From the sequence record LC473039.1: DNA of 64,000 bases. One strand, given 5' to 3'. Below are positions 31-54,340 of the stretch, piece after piece (the stretch's first letter is position 1; each line of letters opens with the position of its first letter). Both the position numbers and the translations under genes were made by a program. The DNA is from Escherichia phage L27. The notes under the pieces were generated by a model. It did no database searches, had not been told where the DNA came from, and saw only the letters and a program-made list of their open reading frames with translations.

Positions 31-303
31 ATGTACACTACTAACAACGGTCGCACCTTAAACGTAACCCTACGCCACTATGTAAACGGTGTAATGCACT
101 TCGAGGATTTACAAGCTGAACAGCACATTTTGGATTGGCAACTTGCAGGATTCCAAAAAACTGCTACCGGATACGGGAAAAAGATTCCAACTAGCTGGAA
201 AGTATACTACGAAGGCCGTTTGCGTAGAATTTATCAAGATGTATACAGCAATAGCGCAACAAGTTACATCATGGTAAAAGGTAAAAAATTACACTTAGTA
301 TAA
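31..303 (+). CDS. hypothetical early protein (90 aa)
   Basis: ORF with AGGAGA RBS 8 nt upstream of ATG; first of a same-strand array of small genes. Confidence 0.6.
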   Translation: MYTTNNGRTLNVTLRHYVNGVMHFEDLQAEQHILDWQLAGFQKTATGYGKKIPTSWKVYYEGRLRRIYQDVYSNSATSYIMVKGKKLHLV

Positions 304-13063: not shown

Positions 13064-14479
13064 ATGAGCGAGTTATTTAAACATGCGCACCTTCATGCAG
13101 GTCGAACTGAAAATGGTGCTGTAAACCATACTTCATCAATGTCTGCTCTGGTAGACTTCTACAAAGCCGCTGGCTCAAGCCGTAGCAATGTAGAAATCTT
13201 ACCAGACCTGTTCTACAAAGCTTTGCGTGAGGATGTTGATGTTGCAGTTCGTATTTTACTGCATATGCGAGATGTACGAGAAGGTATGGGTGAGCGTAAA
13301 GCTTTCCGAACTGTTTTACTTCAAGCGATTGAAGATAAGGTTTTAGAACCTACACAGGTTCTTCGCATTATGGATAAGATTGCAGAACTTGGTCGTTTTG
13401 ATGACTTCAAAATCTTCGTAGGTACTCGTTTCGAGACAGATGCCTTCAAACATTTAGAAGCAGCATTACTAGACCCTGCAACAGCAGGTTTAGCAGCTAA
13501 GTGGTTGCCACGAGTAAAACCACGCCACAAACAGTTTGTAAAACGTTTCTGTAAGTTTGCAAACTTAAGCGAGAAGGAGTATCGCACACTGCTATCTGCA
13601 CTGTCTGATACGGTTGAGCAAAAAATCTCTGCTAATGAGTTTGGTAAGATTGACTACAGCAAGATTCCTTCACTCGCTGCTGCACGTTACCAAAAGCTCT
13701 TTAACCGTAAAGATGGAGAGCGTTACAAAGCTTACATCGAATCATTATCAAAGGGTGAGGTTAAGATTAATGCTGGTGCTGTTTACCCATATGATGTGAT
13801 TAAATCTATTAAGTATGGTAATGCAGATGTTGCTAATGAGCAGTGGAAAGCACTTCCAAACTGGATGGCAGAAGGTGAAAACATCTTGTGTATGACTGAT
13901 GTTTCAAGCTCAATGTCTTGGGTGAATCTTGGTTCAATCACTGCCCTTGATATTGGTGTATCACTTGCCTTGTATGTAGCAGAACGCAATACAGGTTGCT
14001 TTAAAGATGAGTTAATGGTCTATTCAACAAACCCTCATTTCATTGAACTGAGTGGTGATTTACGAAACCGTCATCGTCAGGTAATGCGTCATGTTGAATA
14101 TGGTTCAACTAACTTACAAGCAGCTTTTGACCGTATTCTTGAGGTAGGTAAGAGAAACAACTTGACTCAGAAAGATATGCCAAGTAAGCTTATTATCTTC
14201 TCTGATATGGAGTTTAATCAGGTTGATGGTGCAAATGGTCGTACAAACTTTGAAGCAATTCAGAGTAAGTACAAAAAAGCTGGATACGAAATGCCACAAC
14301 TAGTATTCTGGTACTTAGCAAACCGTAATGGTACTTGCGAAGTATCTGTTAAGGATAATGGTGTAGCAATGGTATCAGGGTTCTCTCCAGCCACTTTAAA
14401 AGCTCTGCTTGGTGGTGAGAAGTTTGACCCAATCAGTGTAATGCTCAAAGCGGTAATGATTGACCGTTATATCTGGTAA
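13064..14479 (+). CDS. vWA-domain protein with MIDAS-like motif; candidate Ro60/TROVE-like (or DUF2828-like) RNA-binding protein (471 aa)
   Basis: DxSxS motif (DVSSSMS) about residue 280 followed by vWA-like pattern (IIFSDMEFN, VSGFSP); overall architecture resembles Ro60/Rsr as recalled, not searched. Confidence 0.5.
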   Translation: MSELFKHAHLHAGRTENGAVNHTSSMSALVDFYKAAGSSRSNVEILPDLFYKALREDVDVAVRILLHMRDVREGMGERKAFRTVLLQAIEDKVLEPTQVLRIMDKIAELGRFDDFKIFVGTRFETDAFKHLEAALLDPATAGLAAKWLPRVKPRHKQFVKRFCKFANLSEKEYRTLLSALSDTVEQKISANEFGKIDYSKIPSLAAARYQKLFNRKDGERYKAYIESLSKGEVKINAGAVYPYDVIKSIKYGNADVANEQWKALPNWMAEGENILCMTDVSSSMSWVNLGSITALDIGVSLALYVAERNTGCFKDELMVYSTNPHFIELSGDLRNRHRQVMRHVEYGSTNLQAAFDRILEVGKRNNLTQKDMPSKLIIFSDMEFNQVDGANGRTNFEAIQSKYKKAGYEMPQLVFWYLANRNGTCEVSVKDNGVAMVSGFSPATLKALLGGEKFDPISVMLKAVMIDRYIW

Positions 14480-14497
14480 AAAGTTTTAAAAAGGGTA

Positions 14498-14526
14498 TTG
14501 ACAATGTGTTTGATACCCTTTAATAT
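14498..14526 (+). promoter_or_regulatory. strong sigma70-like promoter (TTGACA-17-TAATAT) upstream of tRNA cluster
   Basis: consensus -35, 17-nt spacer, near-consensus -10. Confidence 0.7.
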
Positions 14527-14644
14527 GTTCTACATAGAAACGAAACGAGAGCTTTTCTAAGATACTGAAAAATATTTTAAAAAAGTTCTTGACAATCACT
14601 AAAAAATAATGTTAAAGTGGTTACATAGAGTTTGAAAAGTTTAT

Positions 14645-14721
14645 CTCTGTTTAGCTCAGCTTGGTAGAGCGTTCCGTTTGGGGCGGTAAGGCCGGAGGTT
14701 CAAGTCCTCCAACAGAGACCA
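14645..14721 (+). tRNA. tRNA-Pro (anticodon TGG)
   Basis: hand-folded cloverleaf; 7-bp acceptor ctctgtt/aacagag, T-loop ttcaagt, CCA encoded. Confidence 0.7.
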
Positions 14722-14728
14722 AATTAAT

Positions 14729-14806
14729 GTTCCAGTAGACAAAATGGTATAGTCACCACTCTTTCAAAGTGGATATTTGAGGGTTCAAATCCCTTCTGGA
14801 ACGCCA
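14729..14806 (+). tRNA. tRNA-Glu (anticodon TTC)
   Basis: acceptor gttccag/ctggaac, anticodon loop ctttcaa, CCA encoded. Confidence 0.7.
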
Positions 14807-14810
14807 GTTT

Positions 14811-14889
14811 TGACAGAAGACCAATTACAGCAAACTTAATCTTATTCATCTGAAGGTAAATCGGACAAAGAAGAGACTTGGTCTGGTCA
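14811..14889 (+). ncRNA. structured RNA-like element A (Y-RNA-like family)
   Basis: terminal helix tgac/gtca + AGAA/UG internal loop + GACCAA/TTGGTC helix; conserved 'tacagcaa' box. Confidence 0.5.
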
Positions 14890-14898
14890 TTAAGAATT

Positions 14899-14975
14899 GC
14901 GGGTATAGAGAAAGGGCGTCTCACATGTCTCATTAGCATGGTATCGGCAGGTTCGACTCCTGCACCCGCCTCCAA
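14899..14975 (+). tRNA. tRNA-Met-like (anticodon CAT), 1:72 unpaired
   Basis: anticodon loop ctcatta, T-arm gcagg/ttcgact/cctgc, CCA encoded; first acceptor pair mismatched. Confidence 0.6.
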
Positions 14976-14978
14976 ATT

Positions 14979-15049
14979 TACAGAAGACCGTTTACAGCAA
15001 AATTGAATGAAATTTTTAGCGGAAAAATTGAAAGATACGGTCTGGTAAT
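14979..15049 (+). ncRNA. structured RNA-like element B (Y-RNA-like family)
   Basis: terminal helix ttac/gtaa + AGAA/UG loop + GACCGT/ACGGTC helix. Confidence 0.5.
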
Positions 15050-15058
15050 ACTAAACAT

Positions 15059-15132
15059 GGTTAGGAAGCACATAAGGTATGTGCGGTCGCCTGTTAAGCG
15101 AATGGCACAGGGTTCGAATCCCTGACTAACCG
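15059..15132 (+). tRNA. tRNA-Asn (anticodon GTT)
   Basis: T-arm caggg/ttcgaat/ccctg, anticodon loop ctgttaa; CCA not encoded. Confidence 0.65.
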
Positions 15133-15144
15133 CAAAATTTAAAT

Positions 15145-15232
15145 GTGTCGTTATCCCGTAGATGGTAGCGGTGGGGACTGTAAATCCCTTGTCATTGAGA
15201 CTCGGTAGGTTCGACTCCTACACGGCACACCA
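15145..15232 (+). tRNA. tRNA-Tyr (anticodon GTA), long variable arm
   Basis: anticodon stem-loop gggga/ctgtaaa/tccct, T-arm gtagg/ttcgact/cctac, acceptor gtgtcgt/acggcac. Confidence 0.65.
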
Positions 15233-15254
15233 ACACTTAGCGAGATACTTAGTT

Positions 15255-15683
15255 ATGAGAGATGAAGTATACAAATCACAACTTGGTATGAGTTTGGGAA
15301 CTGCACAAAACAGACTAGTAAAAGATTTGCTATTCGATTTTATATGTAAGACAAATCAAAATAGATGTTTTCAGTGCGGAAAAGAAATGACTAGGGATGA
15401 TTTCTCTATCGAGCATAAGATTCCGTGGAGACATAGTGAGAATGCAAAAGAGCTTTTCTTTTCACTAGATAATATTTCTTATAGTCATCTTAAATGTAAC
15501 ATGAAAGCAGCAAGACCAGCACAGATAAGTGAAAGAAAACATAAAACAATTAAACACGGAACTGCGTATAGTTATTTTAAAGGCTGTAGATGCGATGAGT
15601 GTAGGTTGGCTAAGAATGCTGAGAGTAGAAGAAACTATAGTCCAGAAAGACGTAGGAAGAAGTATCTAAGAAATGGCACATGA
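15255..15683 (+). CDS. HNH homing endonuclease (142 aa)
   Basis: CFQCG...SIEHKIPW...N...H..CN HNH motif; basic C-terminus; embedded in tRNA cluster. Confidence 0.75.
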   Translation: MRDEVYKSQLGMSLGTAQNRLVKDLLFDFICKTNQNRCFQCGKEMTRDDFSIEHKIPWRHSENAKELFFSLDNISYSHLKCNMKAARPAQISERKHKTIKHGTAYSYFKGCRCDECRLAKNAESRRNYSPERRRKKYLRNGT

Positions 15684-15687
15684 ATTT

Positions 15688-15763
15688 GGGGTATTAGTTT
15701 AGACGGGTAAAATACGGGATTGTCTCTCCTGAGCCGCGAGTTCGATTCTCGCATACCTCGCCA
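15688..15763 (+). tRNA. tRNA-Asp (anticodon GTC)
   Basis: acceptor ggggtat/atacctc, anticodon loop ttgtctc, CCA encoded. Confidence 0.75.
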
Positions 15764-15821
15764 ATTTTGAGAGGGCTATTTAGCCCCTCCCTTAAAGGGT
15801 TCTTACGAGTATCTTTTAAAG

Positions 15822-15903
15822 GAGCAGAAGACCAAATACAGCAAGAACGTATGAAAATTTCAAGCCAATTTAATTTTGAAAAATTTAAAACTTGGTCTGG
15901 CTC
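15822..15903 (+). ncRNA. structured RNA-like element C (Y-RNA-like family)
   Basis: terminal helix gagc/gctc + AGAA/UG loop + GACCAA/TTGGTC helix. Confidence 0.5.
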
Positions 15904-15910
15904 AACAAAT

Positions 15911-16047
15911 TTACAGAAGACCGTTTACAGCAAAACTTAAACAATCTATTTCTCGGTAAAGAAAAGGCGAAGGTTCGATTCCTTCACTCGGCAGATGTCG
16001 AGTTGGTGTAATGGTAGCACTTAAGATGATAAACAACGGTCTGGTAA
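15911..16047 (+). ncRNA. structured RNA-like element D with circularly permuted tRNA-like module (candidate YrlA-type Y RNA)
   Basis: same terminal helices as A-C; interior has T-arm gaagg/ttcgatt/ccttc, then acceptor-3' actcggc, 4-nt linker, acceptor-5' gtcgagt (7-bp complement) and D-arm gtgt/aatggta/gcac. Confidence 0.5.
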
Positions 16048-16189
16048 TTATCTTTGTAGATAAGTTATTAAGCTTACCTGTGAGTATGCGACCACAAAGG
16101 GTGAAAGGGTAAATTCTAGATTTAAACCCAACAAGGCACATCGCTACAGACCTTAAGCAAGTCTGGGTAGCTTATCTACAAAGATAATT
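16046..16189 (+). ncRNA. structured element F bounded by a 19-bp perfect inverted repeat
   Basis: aattatctttgtagataag (16046-16064) is the exact reverse complement of 16171-16189; about 106-nt interior with internal hairpins. Confidence 0.45.
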
Positions 16190-16193
16190 TAAT

Positions 16194-16269
16194 GGAAGTG
16201 TAGCAGAATGGTGATGCGGTAGACTTTTAATCTGACAGGCGATGGGTTCGAATCCCTCCACTTCTACCA
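16194..16269 (+). tRNA. tRNA-Lys (anticodon TTT), atypical T-stem
   Basis: acceptor ggaagtg/cacttct, anticodon loop cttttaa; T-stem has A.C and U.U mismatches. Confidence 0.55.
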
Positions 16270-16367: not shown

Positions 16368-16853
16368 ATGATTTGTGCCAACAAAGATTGCAGAAATGAA
16401 GCCGTTAAAGGTGGAAAATTTTGCTCACGCTCTTGTTCTGCAAAAGTGAACAACAAGAAACACCCAAAGAGAAGTCAGGAAGGCTCTTGCCATTCATGCG
16501 GAAAGGTAACGCCAAAAGCGAGAAAATACTGTGACGAATGTATTGCAGGTGGAGTCATGAAAAAACATAAGACCCATCATGAAAAAAGCAAAGCCAAATC
16601 ACTGCACGTTAAAAAGTCTCGTGACAGACTGAAGAAGGCTTTAGTTGATTACAAGGGTGGTTGTTGTTCAATTTGTGGTTACAATAGGTGCATAAAGGCT
16701 CTAGAGTTTCACCACTTAGACCCTAAGACAAAAGACTTCACAGTAAGTAAAAAACACTACTCACTGGCTACAATGCAGTCTGAAGTTGATAAGTGTGTCT
16801 TGCTTTGTGCAAATTGCCACAGAGAAGTACACGAAGGGGTAACAATGCTGTGA
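16368..16853 (+). CDS. HNH homing endonuclease (161 aa), Cys-rich N-terminus
   Basis: CSICGYN...LEFHHLDP...CANCHREVH HNH motif; stop codon lies inside the first bases of tRNA-Ile. Confidence 0.75.
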   Translation: MICANKDCRNEAVKGGKFCSRSCSAKVNNKKHPKRSQEGSCHSCGKVTPKARKYCDECIAGGVMKKHKTHHEKSKAKSLHVKKSRDRLKKALVDYKGGCCSICGYNRCIKALEFHHLDPKTKDFTVSKKHYSLATMQSEVDKCVLLCANCHREVHEGVTML

Positions 16854-17170: not shown

Positions 17171-17252
17171 CGGGGCGTATCTCAGCGGTCTTCTAAACCG
17201 CCGTTAACCGAGTAAGTGGAGTATGCGGGTTCGAGTCCTGCCGCCTCGACCA
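17171..17252 (+). tRNA. aberrant tRNA-like gene (possible anticodon TCT), D-arm missing or unrecognisable
   Basis: good T-arm and 7-bp acceptor (cggggcg/cgcctcg) with CCA; stem-loop gcggt/cttctaa/accgc; only about 7 nt where the D-arm should be. Confidence 0.4.
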
Positions 17253-51929: not shown

Positions 51930-52197
51930 CATCTGGTCAATACACTCGCAAGGTGTACCAGTTCTCTTATGAACTTCTCCGCATTTCTACGGAGTGTCGG
52001 ACTATATCACGTAGTAGTAATACTACCGTTGCACTTGGGAATGGTCATTAGCTTACCACCCTACTCTACTCAGTTCATACATTAAGTACGCTTTTCGATA
52101 GTCTCTGAACGTTCCTCTTAAGAGGCTTCGCTGCTGATTACCATATCTTTACAGACTTAGGCTTCCAGCAATTCACAACGTTTTACATGCGCCACTG
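51930..52197 (-). mobile_element. group I intron (268 nt, ORF-less) in DNA polymerase gene
   Basis: conserved P (tgctggaagc), Q (aatcagcag), R (gttcagagactatc), S (gatatagtcc) elements in correct order; P1 with U.G at 5' splice site; terminal G before exon 2. Confidence 0.8.
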
Positions 52198-54340
52198 ACG
52201 CATAGATACCATTCTTAGCCTTCTTACGACCTTTTGTAATCTCGTGAAGAAGTTCCTCATCCTGTGTCTCCCTACAACGAACAATATCTTCTTCCTTGTT
52301 CAGACCAAAGTAAATACTGTTCAGTGTATGTGCATCAGTCCCTGTGTAGACTTCATAGAGGTCGTTCTCAGCATCATAACGAAGATACTTGTCAGTTTCT
52401 GGATTAAGATACTTATCGAGATGCTTGCAATAGTATCTGCCATCCTCTTGCTTAGTGAACTCTACTGACTCTTTACCCTCAGTTACTGCTTTGGTGAAGT
52501 CTTCATCACCCATAAAGTTACAAAGAAGAACAAGCTGTGCAGAGTTCTGGTCAACTGAAACGATGTTAGTCCCCTCCTCACAAATCCACACCTCCCTCAT
52601 AGGTGCTCCATAGACAGCAGCACCAGACGGTACGTTTACAATACCATACTGTGTCATACGTCCAGTTGAAGTACCGAACACCATCGCACCAGCACTAAGG
52701 CGACCATCAGGACGAATCTGGTTCAACCAACCTTTTTCATCATCCTTTGAGTTCTCAATAGTTCTGCGTCGGTGCATCAAAGTGTAGTACTTAGCAATCT
52801 TCTGTCCAAGCTCACCTTCAATCGTATCATAAGATGATTCAGTAAGTTTTGGTGAAGTACGGATTAAGCAAGGCTCAAGCAAATCTGTGTACTTCTTCAC
52901 AGACCAGTTATGCTCAATGTACTGTACACCTTCATGTTCAACATAACTCAAACCACACCGCTCAACCATTTCCTGCCACTTAGGATGCTTTGTAATCATC
53001 TTTTTATTGTCTTTGAAACGACAAACTTTGACAGGGCGACCATCTGAGTCTTTCTTGTAGTTCCAGTCATCTGGAATCCAACCAACTGATTTCAAGTAGT
53101 CTTTAACAACTGCTACCTGAGTCATACGAGAAACTTCGAACTCAATTGGTGTATATGGTGCATCAATCAAACCTGTGTAGCGACTTGACTCAAGTTCAAA
53201 GTGGTTAACAACGTGACTGTTATAGTACTTCACAGTTTTGACTGTTTTTACTGGTTTCCAGTCTTTGCATTTCTTACCAATCTTTGCGTTCAACTCATTG
53301 CAAATTGCACGAGCATCCTTCATTGCTACAAAACCCTCCTTGTACTCTTCACCAGTTACAGAGTTGGTTGGCGTATAGCAATTTCTCTTTTCAATGTTAA
53401 AAATCTTTGTAGTTGGCTTACCAAATGGCTTGATTTCGTATGTCTGCATCTCACCGTTACGCACCTGCTGACGATACTTTGTCTTAGGATACTTGGTAAT
53501 TCTCTTCAGTCCATCTACATGACCAAATGTTTCAACATACTCATTCCAAGCTTTTGCAAACTCTTCTCCAGTAACTTTACCTTTGGTCTTAATAGTTGGA
53601 GGTAGATGTGGTTCAACCTCTGAAGCAAGCTCATTAGTCAACTTGTCAAGTTCCTTCACATGGAACTCCATAAGCTCCTTATCAGCTTTCCAACCATTAA
53701 TAGCTTGTTGACTCATCCAGAAAGATGTTTCTTTAGCTCGCATGTAGGTTTCATAAGTGTCTATGCCACACTTCTTAAGCTTGAGATACTCATTATCAAG
53801 TGCCCGTTTAGTTTTGGCGTTAATACGGATATCTTCTACAACACGAGTGAAGATTTCTGCATTCCACACACCCCAATACTCAATCTCTGGCTTACGAACA
53901 CCAACACGAGCACCCCATGCAGCCAAACCATGAGCACCTTTATAACCTTTTGGAGTTGGTCTATCCATCCACTGAACACGAGACTGGATAAGAGAATCCT
54001 GAAAGAAATTACTCCACGGTTTACACTTTGGATTATCAAAGTTCCATAAATCCGGTGCAATGTGATTGAAAACCCACCAGTCATAACCGAGACCGTTATG
54101 GATGCAAAGACGTTTTGCCTTTAACGCAAACTCAACACCTTCACGCAAACCCCCCTTAATGTACTTGGTATACTTGTGACCGAGGATAGGCTCATCTGTA
54201 AAGACCCATACAGGTGGCTCTTCATCGTCAGATTTATAGTCTGCGAAAGCCATTACGTGCACTTTAGTGAACTCAAGGAGTAAACCATCAGTTTCTGTAT
54301 CACCAACCAAATGTAAGTTTTTAAAATCTACGTTTTCCAT
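52198..54340 (-). CDS. DNA polymerase (family A, T7-like), exon 1
   Basis: 3'-5' exo motif 'DTETDGL', T7 gene 5-like segments, motif B start 'KKAKNGIYA'; track ORF continues 13 codons into the intron to an in-frame stop. Confidence 0.8.

Follow-up and report, generated by a model that had tools for sequence, protein, structure and literature searches.

The tRNA gene cluster of Escherichia phage L27 (record LC473039.1) contains four elements, here termed A to D, which form one family of structures that exist at the RNA level and are encoded by the plus strand. The elements were studied in a stretch of 64,000 nucleotides, hereafter the window, where they lie 0.3-1.6 kb downstream of, and on the same strand as, a gene for a protein with a predicted Ro60 fold (positions 13064-14479). 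The same RNA family is tied to homologues of this Ro-like gene across distant phages. In our view, A to D are probably small non-coding RNA genes, the products of which would be Y-like partners of this protein, a divergent phage-type Ro60 paralogue with the domains DUF2828 and DUF7788. Ro60 and its Y RNAs are conserved from bacteria to humans and are clinically important; their role in bacteria and phages is poorly understood. To our knowledge, partner RNAs are known only for proteins that are recognizable as TROVE proteins.

Four elements of common architecture in a tRNA cluster

The window represents a Felixounavirus (Felix O1-like phage), and ARAGORN reports 24 tRNA genes on its plus strand between positions 14645 and 20427. 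The four elements are located in the first part of this cluster:

14811-14889, plus strand: element A, short form; terminal helix 14811-14814/14886-14889, main helix 14818-14824/14878-14884, box 14827-14833; the preceding tRNA-Glu gene ends at 14806 and the following tRNA-Met gene starts at 14898
14978-15048, plus strand: element B, short form; main helix 14985-14991/15037-15043, box 14994-15000; the preceding tRNA-Met gene ends at 14974 and the following tRNA-Asn gene starts at 15059
15822-15903, plus strand: element C, short form; main helix 15829-15835/15892-15898, box 15838-15844
15911-16047, plus strand: element D, long form with a tRNA-like core; main helix 15918-15924/16036-16042, box 15927-15933; variable arm 15949-15964, T arm 15969-15985, closed acceptor stem-loop 15986-16003, D arm 16006-16020

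All four elements had been described in an earlier reading of this DNA (the original prediction), from which only the position of B deviates by one base (14978-15048, not 14979-15049). The shared architecture that this prediction ascribed to them is seen in the 5' sequence, the 3' closure and the folds. All four have a terminal helix and a 7-bp helix (AGACCNN/NNGGUCU) that is followed by a G, together with a (U)UNCAGCAA box. The 5' box AGAAGACC-NNN-TACAGCAA occurs exactly four times in the window, each time on the plus strand (14815, 14982, 15826 and 15915), and with up to three mismatches allowed none of 100 shuffles matched the window count. The 3' closure of each element is GGTCTGG, and the minimum-energy folds of all four retained the terminal 4-bp helix together with a second helix of 7-8 bp. 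The fold z-scores are modest, ranging from -0.95 to -2.3, the latter being the minimum free energy z-score of D. The interior of A to C is an A-rich loop.

The helix and loop had been described as an AGAA/UG internal loop next to a helix of 6-7 bp. Here the shared helix stands and the loop is refined: in the family-wide register, the last A of AGAA pairs with the U of UG, which yields a 7-bp helix followed by a nearly invariant G and leaves an internal loop of AGA on the 5' side and G on the 3' side. A strict rule-based scan, which required an NCAGCAA box separated by a 2-nt spacer from a 7-bp helix (no more than one G.U pair) with a G behind it, identified exactly A to D in the 64-kb window and no sites on its minus strand. 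A covariance model of the family (see below) scored B at 38.5 bits (E 3e-6), A at 36.8 bits (E 7.5e-6) and C at 24.7 bits (E 0.005), scores that are partly by construction because A to D were among the training sequences; the model handles D poorly because the interior of this element is long. One further model hit in the window (229-279, E 0.12), which has a mismatched helix and is located inside an open reading frame (ORF, 31-303), was treated as a chance match.

A and B start 4-5 nt past a tRNA 3' end and end 9-10 nt ahead of the next tRNA, and the remaining approximately 20 tRNA spacers in the window are devoid of the module. Many unrelated short forms of the family also display a purine-rich interior (often GAAA...AAA) just 5' of the 3' helix strand, and such stretches are found in the window at 14860-14877, 15022-15036 and 15876-15891. 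Possibly, this purine-rich interior represents a third conserved feature of the module.

Base pairing is conserved at the level of RNA

The terminal helices differ between the copies and nonetheless stay complementary, in agreement with the original prediction, with three versions among the paralogues (TGAC/GTCA in A, TTAC/GTAA in B and D, GAGC/GCTC in C). Likewise, the distal pairs of the second helix do covary, being CCAA/TTGG in A and C versus CCGT/ACGG in B and D. Covariation in related phages was looked for as well, and it was found both in orthologous loci and in an alignment of the whole family.

The ortholog comparison covered 17 other Felix O1-like and Mooglevirus loci. In six of these, the terminal helix of B has changed on both sides to TTGC/GCAA. 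Among the orthologs of C, the terminal helix can be GGAGC/GUUCC or GGGC/GCUC, thereby using G.U pairs. All single substitutions in the main helix (AGGCCAA, AGACCGA, AGGCCGT and AGACTGT) result in G.U or U.G pairs on the plus strand, whereas each of them would create a C.A mismatch if read on the other strand. The first position of the box is A, G or U, and CAGCAA is unchanged throughout. An RNAalifold consensus of eight D orthologs recovered all arms of this element, with invariant T and D arms and an acceptor stem in which three pairs are altered on both sides (UA/AU/CG, GC/UA and GU/UG/UA). The compensatory changes, together with G.U pairs that are possible on the plus strand only, argue for an RNA structure rather than a DNA site, as had been proposed.

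The family alignment comprises 50 non-redundant elements. Since MAFFT split several 3' strands when applied to full-length short forms, internally trimmed sequences of equal length were used for the pair counts and for the covariance model, and the model is consequently weak on long interiors, missing D and some of its own training members. Changes on both sides were observed for all seven helix pairs, each of which is represented by 3-6 pair types. The covariation score was 0.83, compared to 0.24 for shuffled sequences and 0.12-0.18 when the partners were slid by 1-3 columns. The features conserved family-wide are a helix base (A/U)AG...CU(G/U), the G that follows it (90%) and the single-stranded CAGCAA box. 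The terminal helix was rejected as a feature of this kind, as it is paired in just 51% of the family. The motif originally proposed, a 4-bp terminal helix with a fixed internal loop, thus holds for the Felix O1-like phages, to which it is specific, and does not extend to the family at large. Altogether, we regard it as highly probable that A to D are genuine structured RNAs.

These data also bear on the view that A to D are DNA-level sites, such as targets of homing endonucleases or sites for recombination or replication, or else decayed tRNA pseudogenes. The cluster does include ORFs for HNH endonucleases (15255-15683 and 16369-16853), and D does have tRNA-like arms. However, complementarity has been kept while the helix sequence is free to vary, the single substitutions are G.U on the plus strand and C.A on the other, and the module shows a strand bias of 89 to 0 in distant phages (see below). 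Moreover, the T and D arms of D are invariant and its acceptor stem changes by compensation. We therefore consider this view extremely improbable.

The module travels with the Ro-like gene in distant phages

Modules composed of the helix and CAGCAA are located beside homologues of the Ro-like gene in phages of Klebsiella, Aeromonas, Vibrio, Cronobacter, Campylobacter, Listeria, Staphylococcus, Enterococcus, Bacillus and Mycobacterium, a host range that spans Proteobacteria, Firmicutes, Actinobacteria and Campylobacter, and the helix sequences differ almost everywhere across the family. When the flanks of eleven homologous loci were inspected, all eleven were found to carry 1-8 copies on the gene strand within approximately 1.5 kb. 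The layout in these loci is a helix of 7-9 bp, 0-2 pyrimidines and ACAGCAA, with the complementary strand 20-190 nt downstream and then a G. Examples are:

Staphylococcus phage: AAGACAC-uu-ACAGCAA...GUGUCUU-g
Listeria phage: UAGGAAUC-ua-ACAGCAA...GAUUCCUG
Mycobacterium phage: UGGACACA-g-ACAGCAA...UGUGUCCA-g
Campylobacter phage: AGGGUAUUU-ACAGCAA...AAAUACCCU-g

A gene-centred set of 92 loci (666 kb) was analysed, which includes about 17 near-identical Felix-like loci and 75 non-Felix loci. In the 92 loci, ACAGCAA is eight times commoner on the gene strand than on the opposite strand (199 versus 25 occurrences). A flanking helix of at least 7 bp accompanies 113 of the 199 gene-strand boxes and 1 of the 25 on the opposite strand, while for 25 permuted control 7-mers such a helix was found at about 14% of the gene-strand boxes. 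An earlier scan with a minimum of 6 bp was too permissive, assigning a "helix" to 20 of 38 boxes in the window, and was superseded by these stricter, controlled rules. With the strict rule-based scan, the 75 non-Felix loci yielded 89 gene-strand sites, distributed over 52 loci, and none on the opposite strand. When the covariance model was applied to the same 75 loci, 54 matches were obtained at E≤1, of which 53 are on the gene strand. Many of these matches come from loci outside the training set and combine perfect helices with UCAGCAA, GCAGCAA or CCAGCAA boxes, from which it follows that the invariant core is CAGCAA. As a control, 96 kb far from the gene were searched in two of these genomes, those of the Staphylococcus and Aeromonas phages; the best model match had an E-value of 0.44, and the rule-based scan returned three likely chance sites and one plausible extra copy. 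Together, these results tie the RNA family to the Ro-like gene across distant phages.

The Aeromonas phage LAh_6 has at least eight tandem copies upstream of the gene (L004 2983-3964). The plausible extra copy belongs to the same phage (MK838112.1, 39142-39252; AAGAAUCC-gu-UCAGCAA...GGAUUCUG) and is located approximately 40 kb away among tiny annotated ORFs. RNA ligase genes, annotated as RtcB-type "tRNA-splicing ligase", Rnl2 or "RNA ligase", are present in several genomes that carry the system, some of them within a few kb of the Ro-like gene (L007 5808-7019, RtcB of Listeria phage LMSP-25; L004 9070-9353, Rnl2 of LAh_6; OR354839.1 40899-43198).

In principle, the elements could act in cis within a polycistronic tRNA transcript, either as spacers or in its processing, as would be the case for folding insulators or for sites where RNase E or RNase III enters. 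They would then have no dedicated protein partner, and the proximity of the Ro-like gene would be a by-product of its position at the tRNA cluster. The tight fit of A and B between tRNA genes is in line with this idea, and tRNA clusters are present at many of the homologous loci too. On the other hand, several phages carry the module beside the gene without an adjacent tRNA cluster. This applies to Mycobacterium phage Samty, where the module is downstream of the gene with no tRNA in between, to Staphylococcus phage S-CoN_Ph16, to LAh_6, where no tRNAs accompany the copies upstream of the gene, and to Vibrio phage ValKK3. Within the window, the other approximately 20 tRNA spacers manage without the module. 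In addition, CAGCAA is invariant and single-stranded across phyla, which would fit a specific reader better than a generic RNase. This explanation thus seems quite unlikely.

Another possibility is that A to D are primarily operators or decoys, which the protein binds to control its own synthesis or that of its neighbours, and not functional subunits of an RNA-protein particle. KVP40-like Vibrio phages have a single copy at the 5' end of the Ro-like gene (ValKK3, L003 3957-4013; also L028 and L029), in which a Shine-Dalgarno-like GAGGAAA is placed in the loop and the annotated AUG within the 3' helix strand. This arrangement resembles an operator bound by the Ro-like protein and suggests that the protein may repress its own translation. 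The sole copy of these phages thus overlaps the ribosome-binding region and start codon, and Listeria, Campylobacter, Enterococcus and Aeromonas phages have their copies a short distance 5' of the gene. By contrast, the copies are downstream of the gene in the window and in Klebsiella, Staphylococcus and Mycobacterium phages, and those in the window are placed behind separate promoters and between tRNAs. It would also be hard to explain in this way why there are multiple paralogues with elaborate tRNA-like interiors that are kept by compensatory change. A mainly regulatory role of A to D, which would itself still need binding of the module by the protein, is therefore considered unlikely.

The neighbouring gene encodes a protein with a predicted Ro60 fold

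13064-14479, plus strand: gene for the Ro60-fold protein, 471 amino acids; helical-repeat ring followed by a von Willebrand factor A (vWA) domain with an intact DxSxS metal-binding motif

At E≤0.01, Pfam assigns only DUF2828 and DUF7788 to this protein, and it matches PHROG 850, "RNA-binding protein". A search with phmmer against PDB sequences gave no Ro60 match. A confident AlphaFold2 model computed from a 36-sequence alignment reached a mean predicted local distance difference test score of 88.7 and a predicted template modelling score of 0.88, and when it was compared to the PDB with Foldseek, the best ten matches were all Ro60 proteins (from Thermus phage phiLo, Xenopus, human and Deinococcus). 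The model has the Ro60 architecture, in which a helical-repeat ring precedes a vWA domain with the metal ion-dependent adhesion site motif, and the metal-binding residues D279, S281 and S283 of this motif are invariant in the homolog alignment. By its modelled structure, the protein is thus a Ro60 paralogue that sequence methods do not place in TROVE, and the assertion that a Ro60-like gene is located close upstream of the elements agrees with this fold assignment.

The protein family is widespread. With tblastn it was found in 709 phage records, with 25-52% identity outside the Felix group; among the sources are phages of Escherichia, Salmonella, Mycobacterium, Vibrio, Listeria, Staphylococcus, Campylobacter, Enterococcus, Bacillus and Aeromonas. 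At E≤1e-5, the family matches 2,464 protein clusters. The Mycobacterium phage homologues carry the annotation "Ro-like RNA binding protein".

Element D and other long forms enclose a tRNA-like core

In the fold of element D, a stem-loop (UUUCU/AGAAA) precedes the T arm, which has the sequence GAAGG-UUCGAUU-CCUUC. The closed acceptor-like stem that follows reads ACUCGGC-AGAU-GUCGAGU, and the D arm reads GUGU-AAUGGUA-GCAC. None of the four elements was called as a tRNA by ARAGORN or by Rfam at the gathering threshold; when the Rfam tRNA model was applied to D, the T arm alone matched (14.9 bits). Long forms of the family are not limited to the window. As read from folds, at least 12 of them, in at least 12 phage lineages, have the T arm, the closed acceptor and the D arm in the order seen in D, the sources being Klebsiella, Mycobacterium, Bacillus and Cronobacter phages as well as metagenomic phages. 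The Rfam YrlA model matched three long forms at 37.9-39.6 bits (Samty 37.9, Klebsiella 39.6 and L030 38.2 bits), with E-values from 6e-7 to 8e-5. A fourth long form scored 26.7 bits. These matches, which are below the gathering score of 69 bits without exception, cover the tRNA-like core only, leaving the outer stems unaligned, and they serve as a positive control for the lack of a YrlA match in the window.

Two further observations concern the long forms. The loop that closes the acceptor stem often begins with NCCA (GCCA or ACCA), as in L012, L024, L030, L071, L082 and L088. Since this resembles a discriminator base followed by CCA, RNase P or 3' processing might split the RNAs or expose a tRNA-like 3' end; the acceptor loop of D consists of 4 nt only (AGAU). 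Secondly, there are over-long "tRNAs" of 113-121 nt in Klebsiella phage FBKp34 (L002 6003-6116) and Cronobacter phage S13 (L012 4895-5015 and 5025-5137), for which the Rfam tRNA model gives 41-57 bits. In each of them, the D arm is separated from the anticodon arm by an insert of approximately 40 nt, namely a hairpin followed by UUACAGCA or AUUCAGCA. This insert is the module of A to D closed by a loop, and the arrangement corresponds to element D with its topology circularly permuted.

Phage tRNA clusters are regarded as a countermeasure against defences that cleave tRNAs. In line with this, A to D might be self-acting tRNA mimics or decoys that are directed against tRNA-targeting host defences, such as anticodon nucleases, with the Ro-like protein being unrelated. 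The tRNA elbow in D and in many long forms would fit such a role, as would the RNA ligase genes near some of the loci (RtcB in LMSP-25 and Rnl2 in LAh_6). However, A to C and most other members of the family are without any tRNA-like part and yet have kept both the module and the linkage to the gene, which makes this explanation very unlikely.

Putative function of the RNAs as partners of the Ro-like protein

Several observations weigh against the interpretation of A to D as Y-like RNAs. At the gathering threshold and at E≤10, Rfam gave no match for any of them, including Y_RNA and YrlA. Neither of the known Ro-binding motifs, GGUCCGA in animals and GNCGAAN0-1G in bacteria, is present in the stem. 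TROVE (PF05731) was not detected by Pfam in the neighbouring protein, five distant homologues lacked it at E≤1 and showed weak vWA-type matches only, and a profile of 36 homologues found Ro60 among PDB sequences only at an E-value of 0.91. By the strict rule, 23 of the 75 homologous loci have no element within 3 kb. The aligned elements were selected for having the helix, which makes their 100% pairing partly circular; independent support is provided by the diversity of pair types together with the control-box, strand and ortholog tests. ARAGORN did not accept a circularly permuted D as a tRNA after CCA and an artificial anticodon loop had been added, the reason being a variable region of excessive length. 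Lastly, the anti-defence phenotype reported for a related phage (see below) was assigned to the protein gene and not to RNAs. The proposal that A to D are Y-RNA-like partners of a Ro60-like protein is supported by the design of the elements, by their linkage to the gene and by the Ro60 fold of its product, and also by the operator-like copy at the start of the gene in KVP40-like phages. We regard the proposal as essentially right, although the Rfam match and the Ro-binding motif are missing.

Based on the genomic linkage, binding of A to D to the adjacent protein is nevertheless likely. For their expression as discrete RNAs and their biological role, we infer the following scenario. A to D would be co-transcribed with the phage tRNAs from two sigma-70-like promoters and released by processing of the flanking tRNAs; A and B lie 4-10 nt from tRNA ends, so normal tRNA processing would be expected to release them.

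14498-14526 and 14589-14618, plus strand: two sigma-70-like promoters upstream of the tRNA and non-coding RNA cluster and facing it; TTGACA-17-TAATAT and TTGACA-18-TAAAGT, each matching 10 of 12 positions

No terminator-like sites were found on the plus strand between these promoters and element D. Each RNA would present a shared protein-binding module, consisting of the 7-bp helix with the base (A/U)AG...CU(G/U), the G that follows and the single-stranded (Y)(U)NCAGCAA box, which adjoins the 5' strand towards the loop. The interior would serve as a variable second module, either an A-rich loop (A to C) or a tRNA-like elbow (D). The ring protein may bind the shared module, as in Ro60 and Y RNA, and the variable module may gate the ring or tether another factor, for example an exoribonuclease or a tRNA-recognising enzyme. 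A likely setting for this would be RNA and tRNA quality control, or counter-defence during infection.

These findings point to a widespread phage RNA-protein particle that is apparently undescribed. Candidate partner RNAs, and with them a simple putative recognition motif that lends itself to testing, can now be assigned to a large family of phage proteins, currently annotated as "DUF2828", "vWFA protein" or "RNA-binding protein". A tractable system is available in phage Bas63, which infects E. coli and in which deletion of the Ro60-like gene, a presumed ortholog, results in a counter-defence phenotype. The family also accounts for gaps without annotation, for spurious small ORFs and for over-long "tRNAs" in the records of many phage genomes.

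Genomic context of the elements

The region 14480-16200 is 98.8% identical to that of Escherichia phage radambza and 92-97% identical to that of many Salmonella and Escherichia Felix O1-like phages. In radambza, the annotation of the corresponding stretch lists tRNAs and one HNH endonuclease only, with nothing at the four element sites. The ORFs 15255-15683 and 16369-16853 are both on the plus strand inside the cluster, and the former is the counterpart of the HNH homing endonuclease annotated in radambza. The query coverage of 69-71% for Felix O1 itself is due to the presence or absence of the HNH homing endonuclease ORF.

Other structured RNAs or candidates for such RNAs are apparent in the window. 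A GC-rich hairpin (GAGAGGGCUAUUUAGCCCCUC; 15771-15791, plus strand), which is conserved in Mooglevirus Sf14, follows tRNA-Asp just 5' of element C; since a U tract is absent, the hairpin may serve as a signal for processing or stability and not as a terminator. Between D and tRNA-Lys, positions 16046-16194 (plus strand) represent a further candidate for a structured RNA, with a closing stem of approximately 23 bp (around 16046-16069 with 16168-16193) that surrounds about 100 nt including the conserved AUUCUAGAUU. The structure is kept in five orthologs that form two groups, with 9 pairs altered on both sides, and the candidate has no Rfam match. The Rfam tRNA model also makes a weak call at 17171-17249 (plus strand, 31.7 bits), which is not reported by ARAGORN, and a group I intron (RF00028, 64.9 bits, full-length match) is located on the minus strand at 51977-52209.

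Comparison with known Ro60 and Y RNA systems

A literature search on DUF2828, Ro-like proteins and Y RNAs in Felix O1-like phages, the coverage of which was not exhaustive, returned no description of the elements or of the CAGCAA motif. A biological precedent is gp130 of the Felixounavirus Bas63, which is encoded directly upstream of a tRNA cluster and is reported to have a Ro60-like structure and to counter the Ppl defence (10.1101/2024.10.10.617714). From the description in this preprint, gp130 is presumed to be the ortholog of the 13064-14479 ORF. The authors of the PhageMaP preprint guess that some annotated tRNAs may be Y RNAs and identify none (10.1101/2024.10.10.617714); A to D lie instead between the annotated tRNAs.

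Metazoan Y RNAs (RF00019), like A to D, occur as several paralogues with a terminal stem and a variable loop, and they too have a conserved helix with an internal loop or bulge close to it. They differ in the helix, which is GGUCCGA/UUGACC as opposed to AGACCNN/NNGGUCU, and in the bulge, which is on the other side. Moreover, the conserved single-stranded box is a feature of A to D, which do not match RF00019 at E≤10. In the phage phiLo, a true TROVE-type Ro60 binds adjacent Y-like RNAs and the host PNPase (PMC12135203; structures PDB 9KOP and 9L5Y). This protein is recognizable as TROVE and shares only about 15% sequence identity with the protein in the window. The same Thermus phage study chose its RNAs, Yrl1 and Yrl2, by a CGAA criterion (PMC12135203). 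There is no CGAA in A to C, and the GGCGAAG of D (15966-15972) is in the T stem only, not in the terminal stem, and is probably a coincidence.

Known bacterial and phage Y RNAs were found beside annotated TROVE proteins and carry GNCGAAN0-1G near the 5' end (PMC4201824). Of these, YrlA with its partner Rsr (RF02553, PMC4201824; gathering score 69 bits) is like A to D encoded beside a gene for a Ro60-fold protein on the same strand. A location of this kind, within a few kb of the Ro60 gene and on its strand, is expected of Y RNAs in bacteria and phages, and it applies to A to D and to 52 of the 75 distant loci. Several paralogues per locus, and an end-closed stem as presumed protein-binding module combined with a variable second module, are further points in common. 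The RNA ligase genes near phage Ro-like genes also echo the Salmonella rsr-yrlBA-rtcBA operon. The differences concern the stem motif, GNCGAAN0-1G in YrlA as compared to the helix base (A/U)AG...CUG plus single-stranded NCAGCAA, the partner, which is of the TROVE type in YrlA and of the DUF2828/DUF7788 type here, and the fact that most members of the present family are short hairpins without a tRNA-like part. A to D thus resemble Y RNAs in their design and are not members of the Y_RNA or YrlA families.

On a broader view, we give about even chances to the idea that DUF2828/DUF7788 proteins and the helix-CAGCAA RNAs constitute a second, phage-borne branch of Ro60/Y RNA systems with its own recognition code. 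This branch would extend over many unrelated phage lineages and use the module as stand-alone hairpins, as stems around a tRNA mimic and as hairpins in normal-looking tRNAs. The particle would act on host or phage tRNA and RNA metabolism against bacterial defence, with the Ppl-counter phenotype of Bas63 gp130 as one readout. The resemblance to YrlA extends to the tRNA-like part of the long forms, in which, as in YrlA, the variable arm is followed by the T arm, the closed acceptor and the D arm, and the T and D arms hardly vary. In element D, the terminal stem encloses the T arm, the closed acceptor stem-loop and the D arm in the YrlA order (PMC4201824); A to C are without them. The tRNA-like module is therefore common to the known YrlA RNAs and to this family, and it is the protein-binding module that differs between them.

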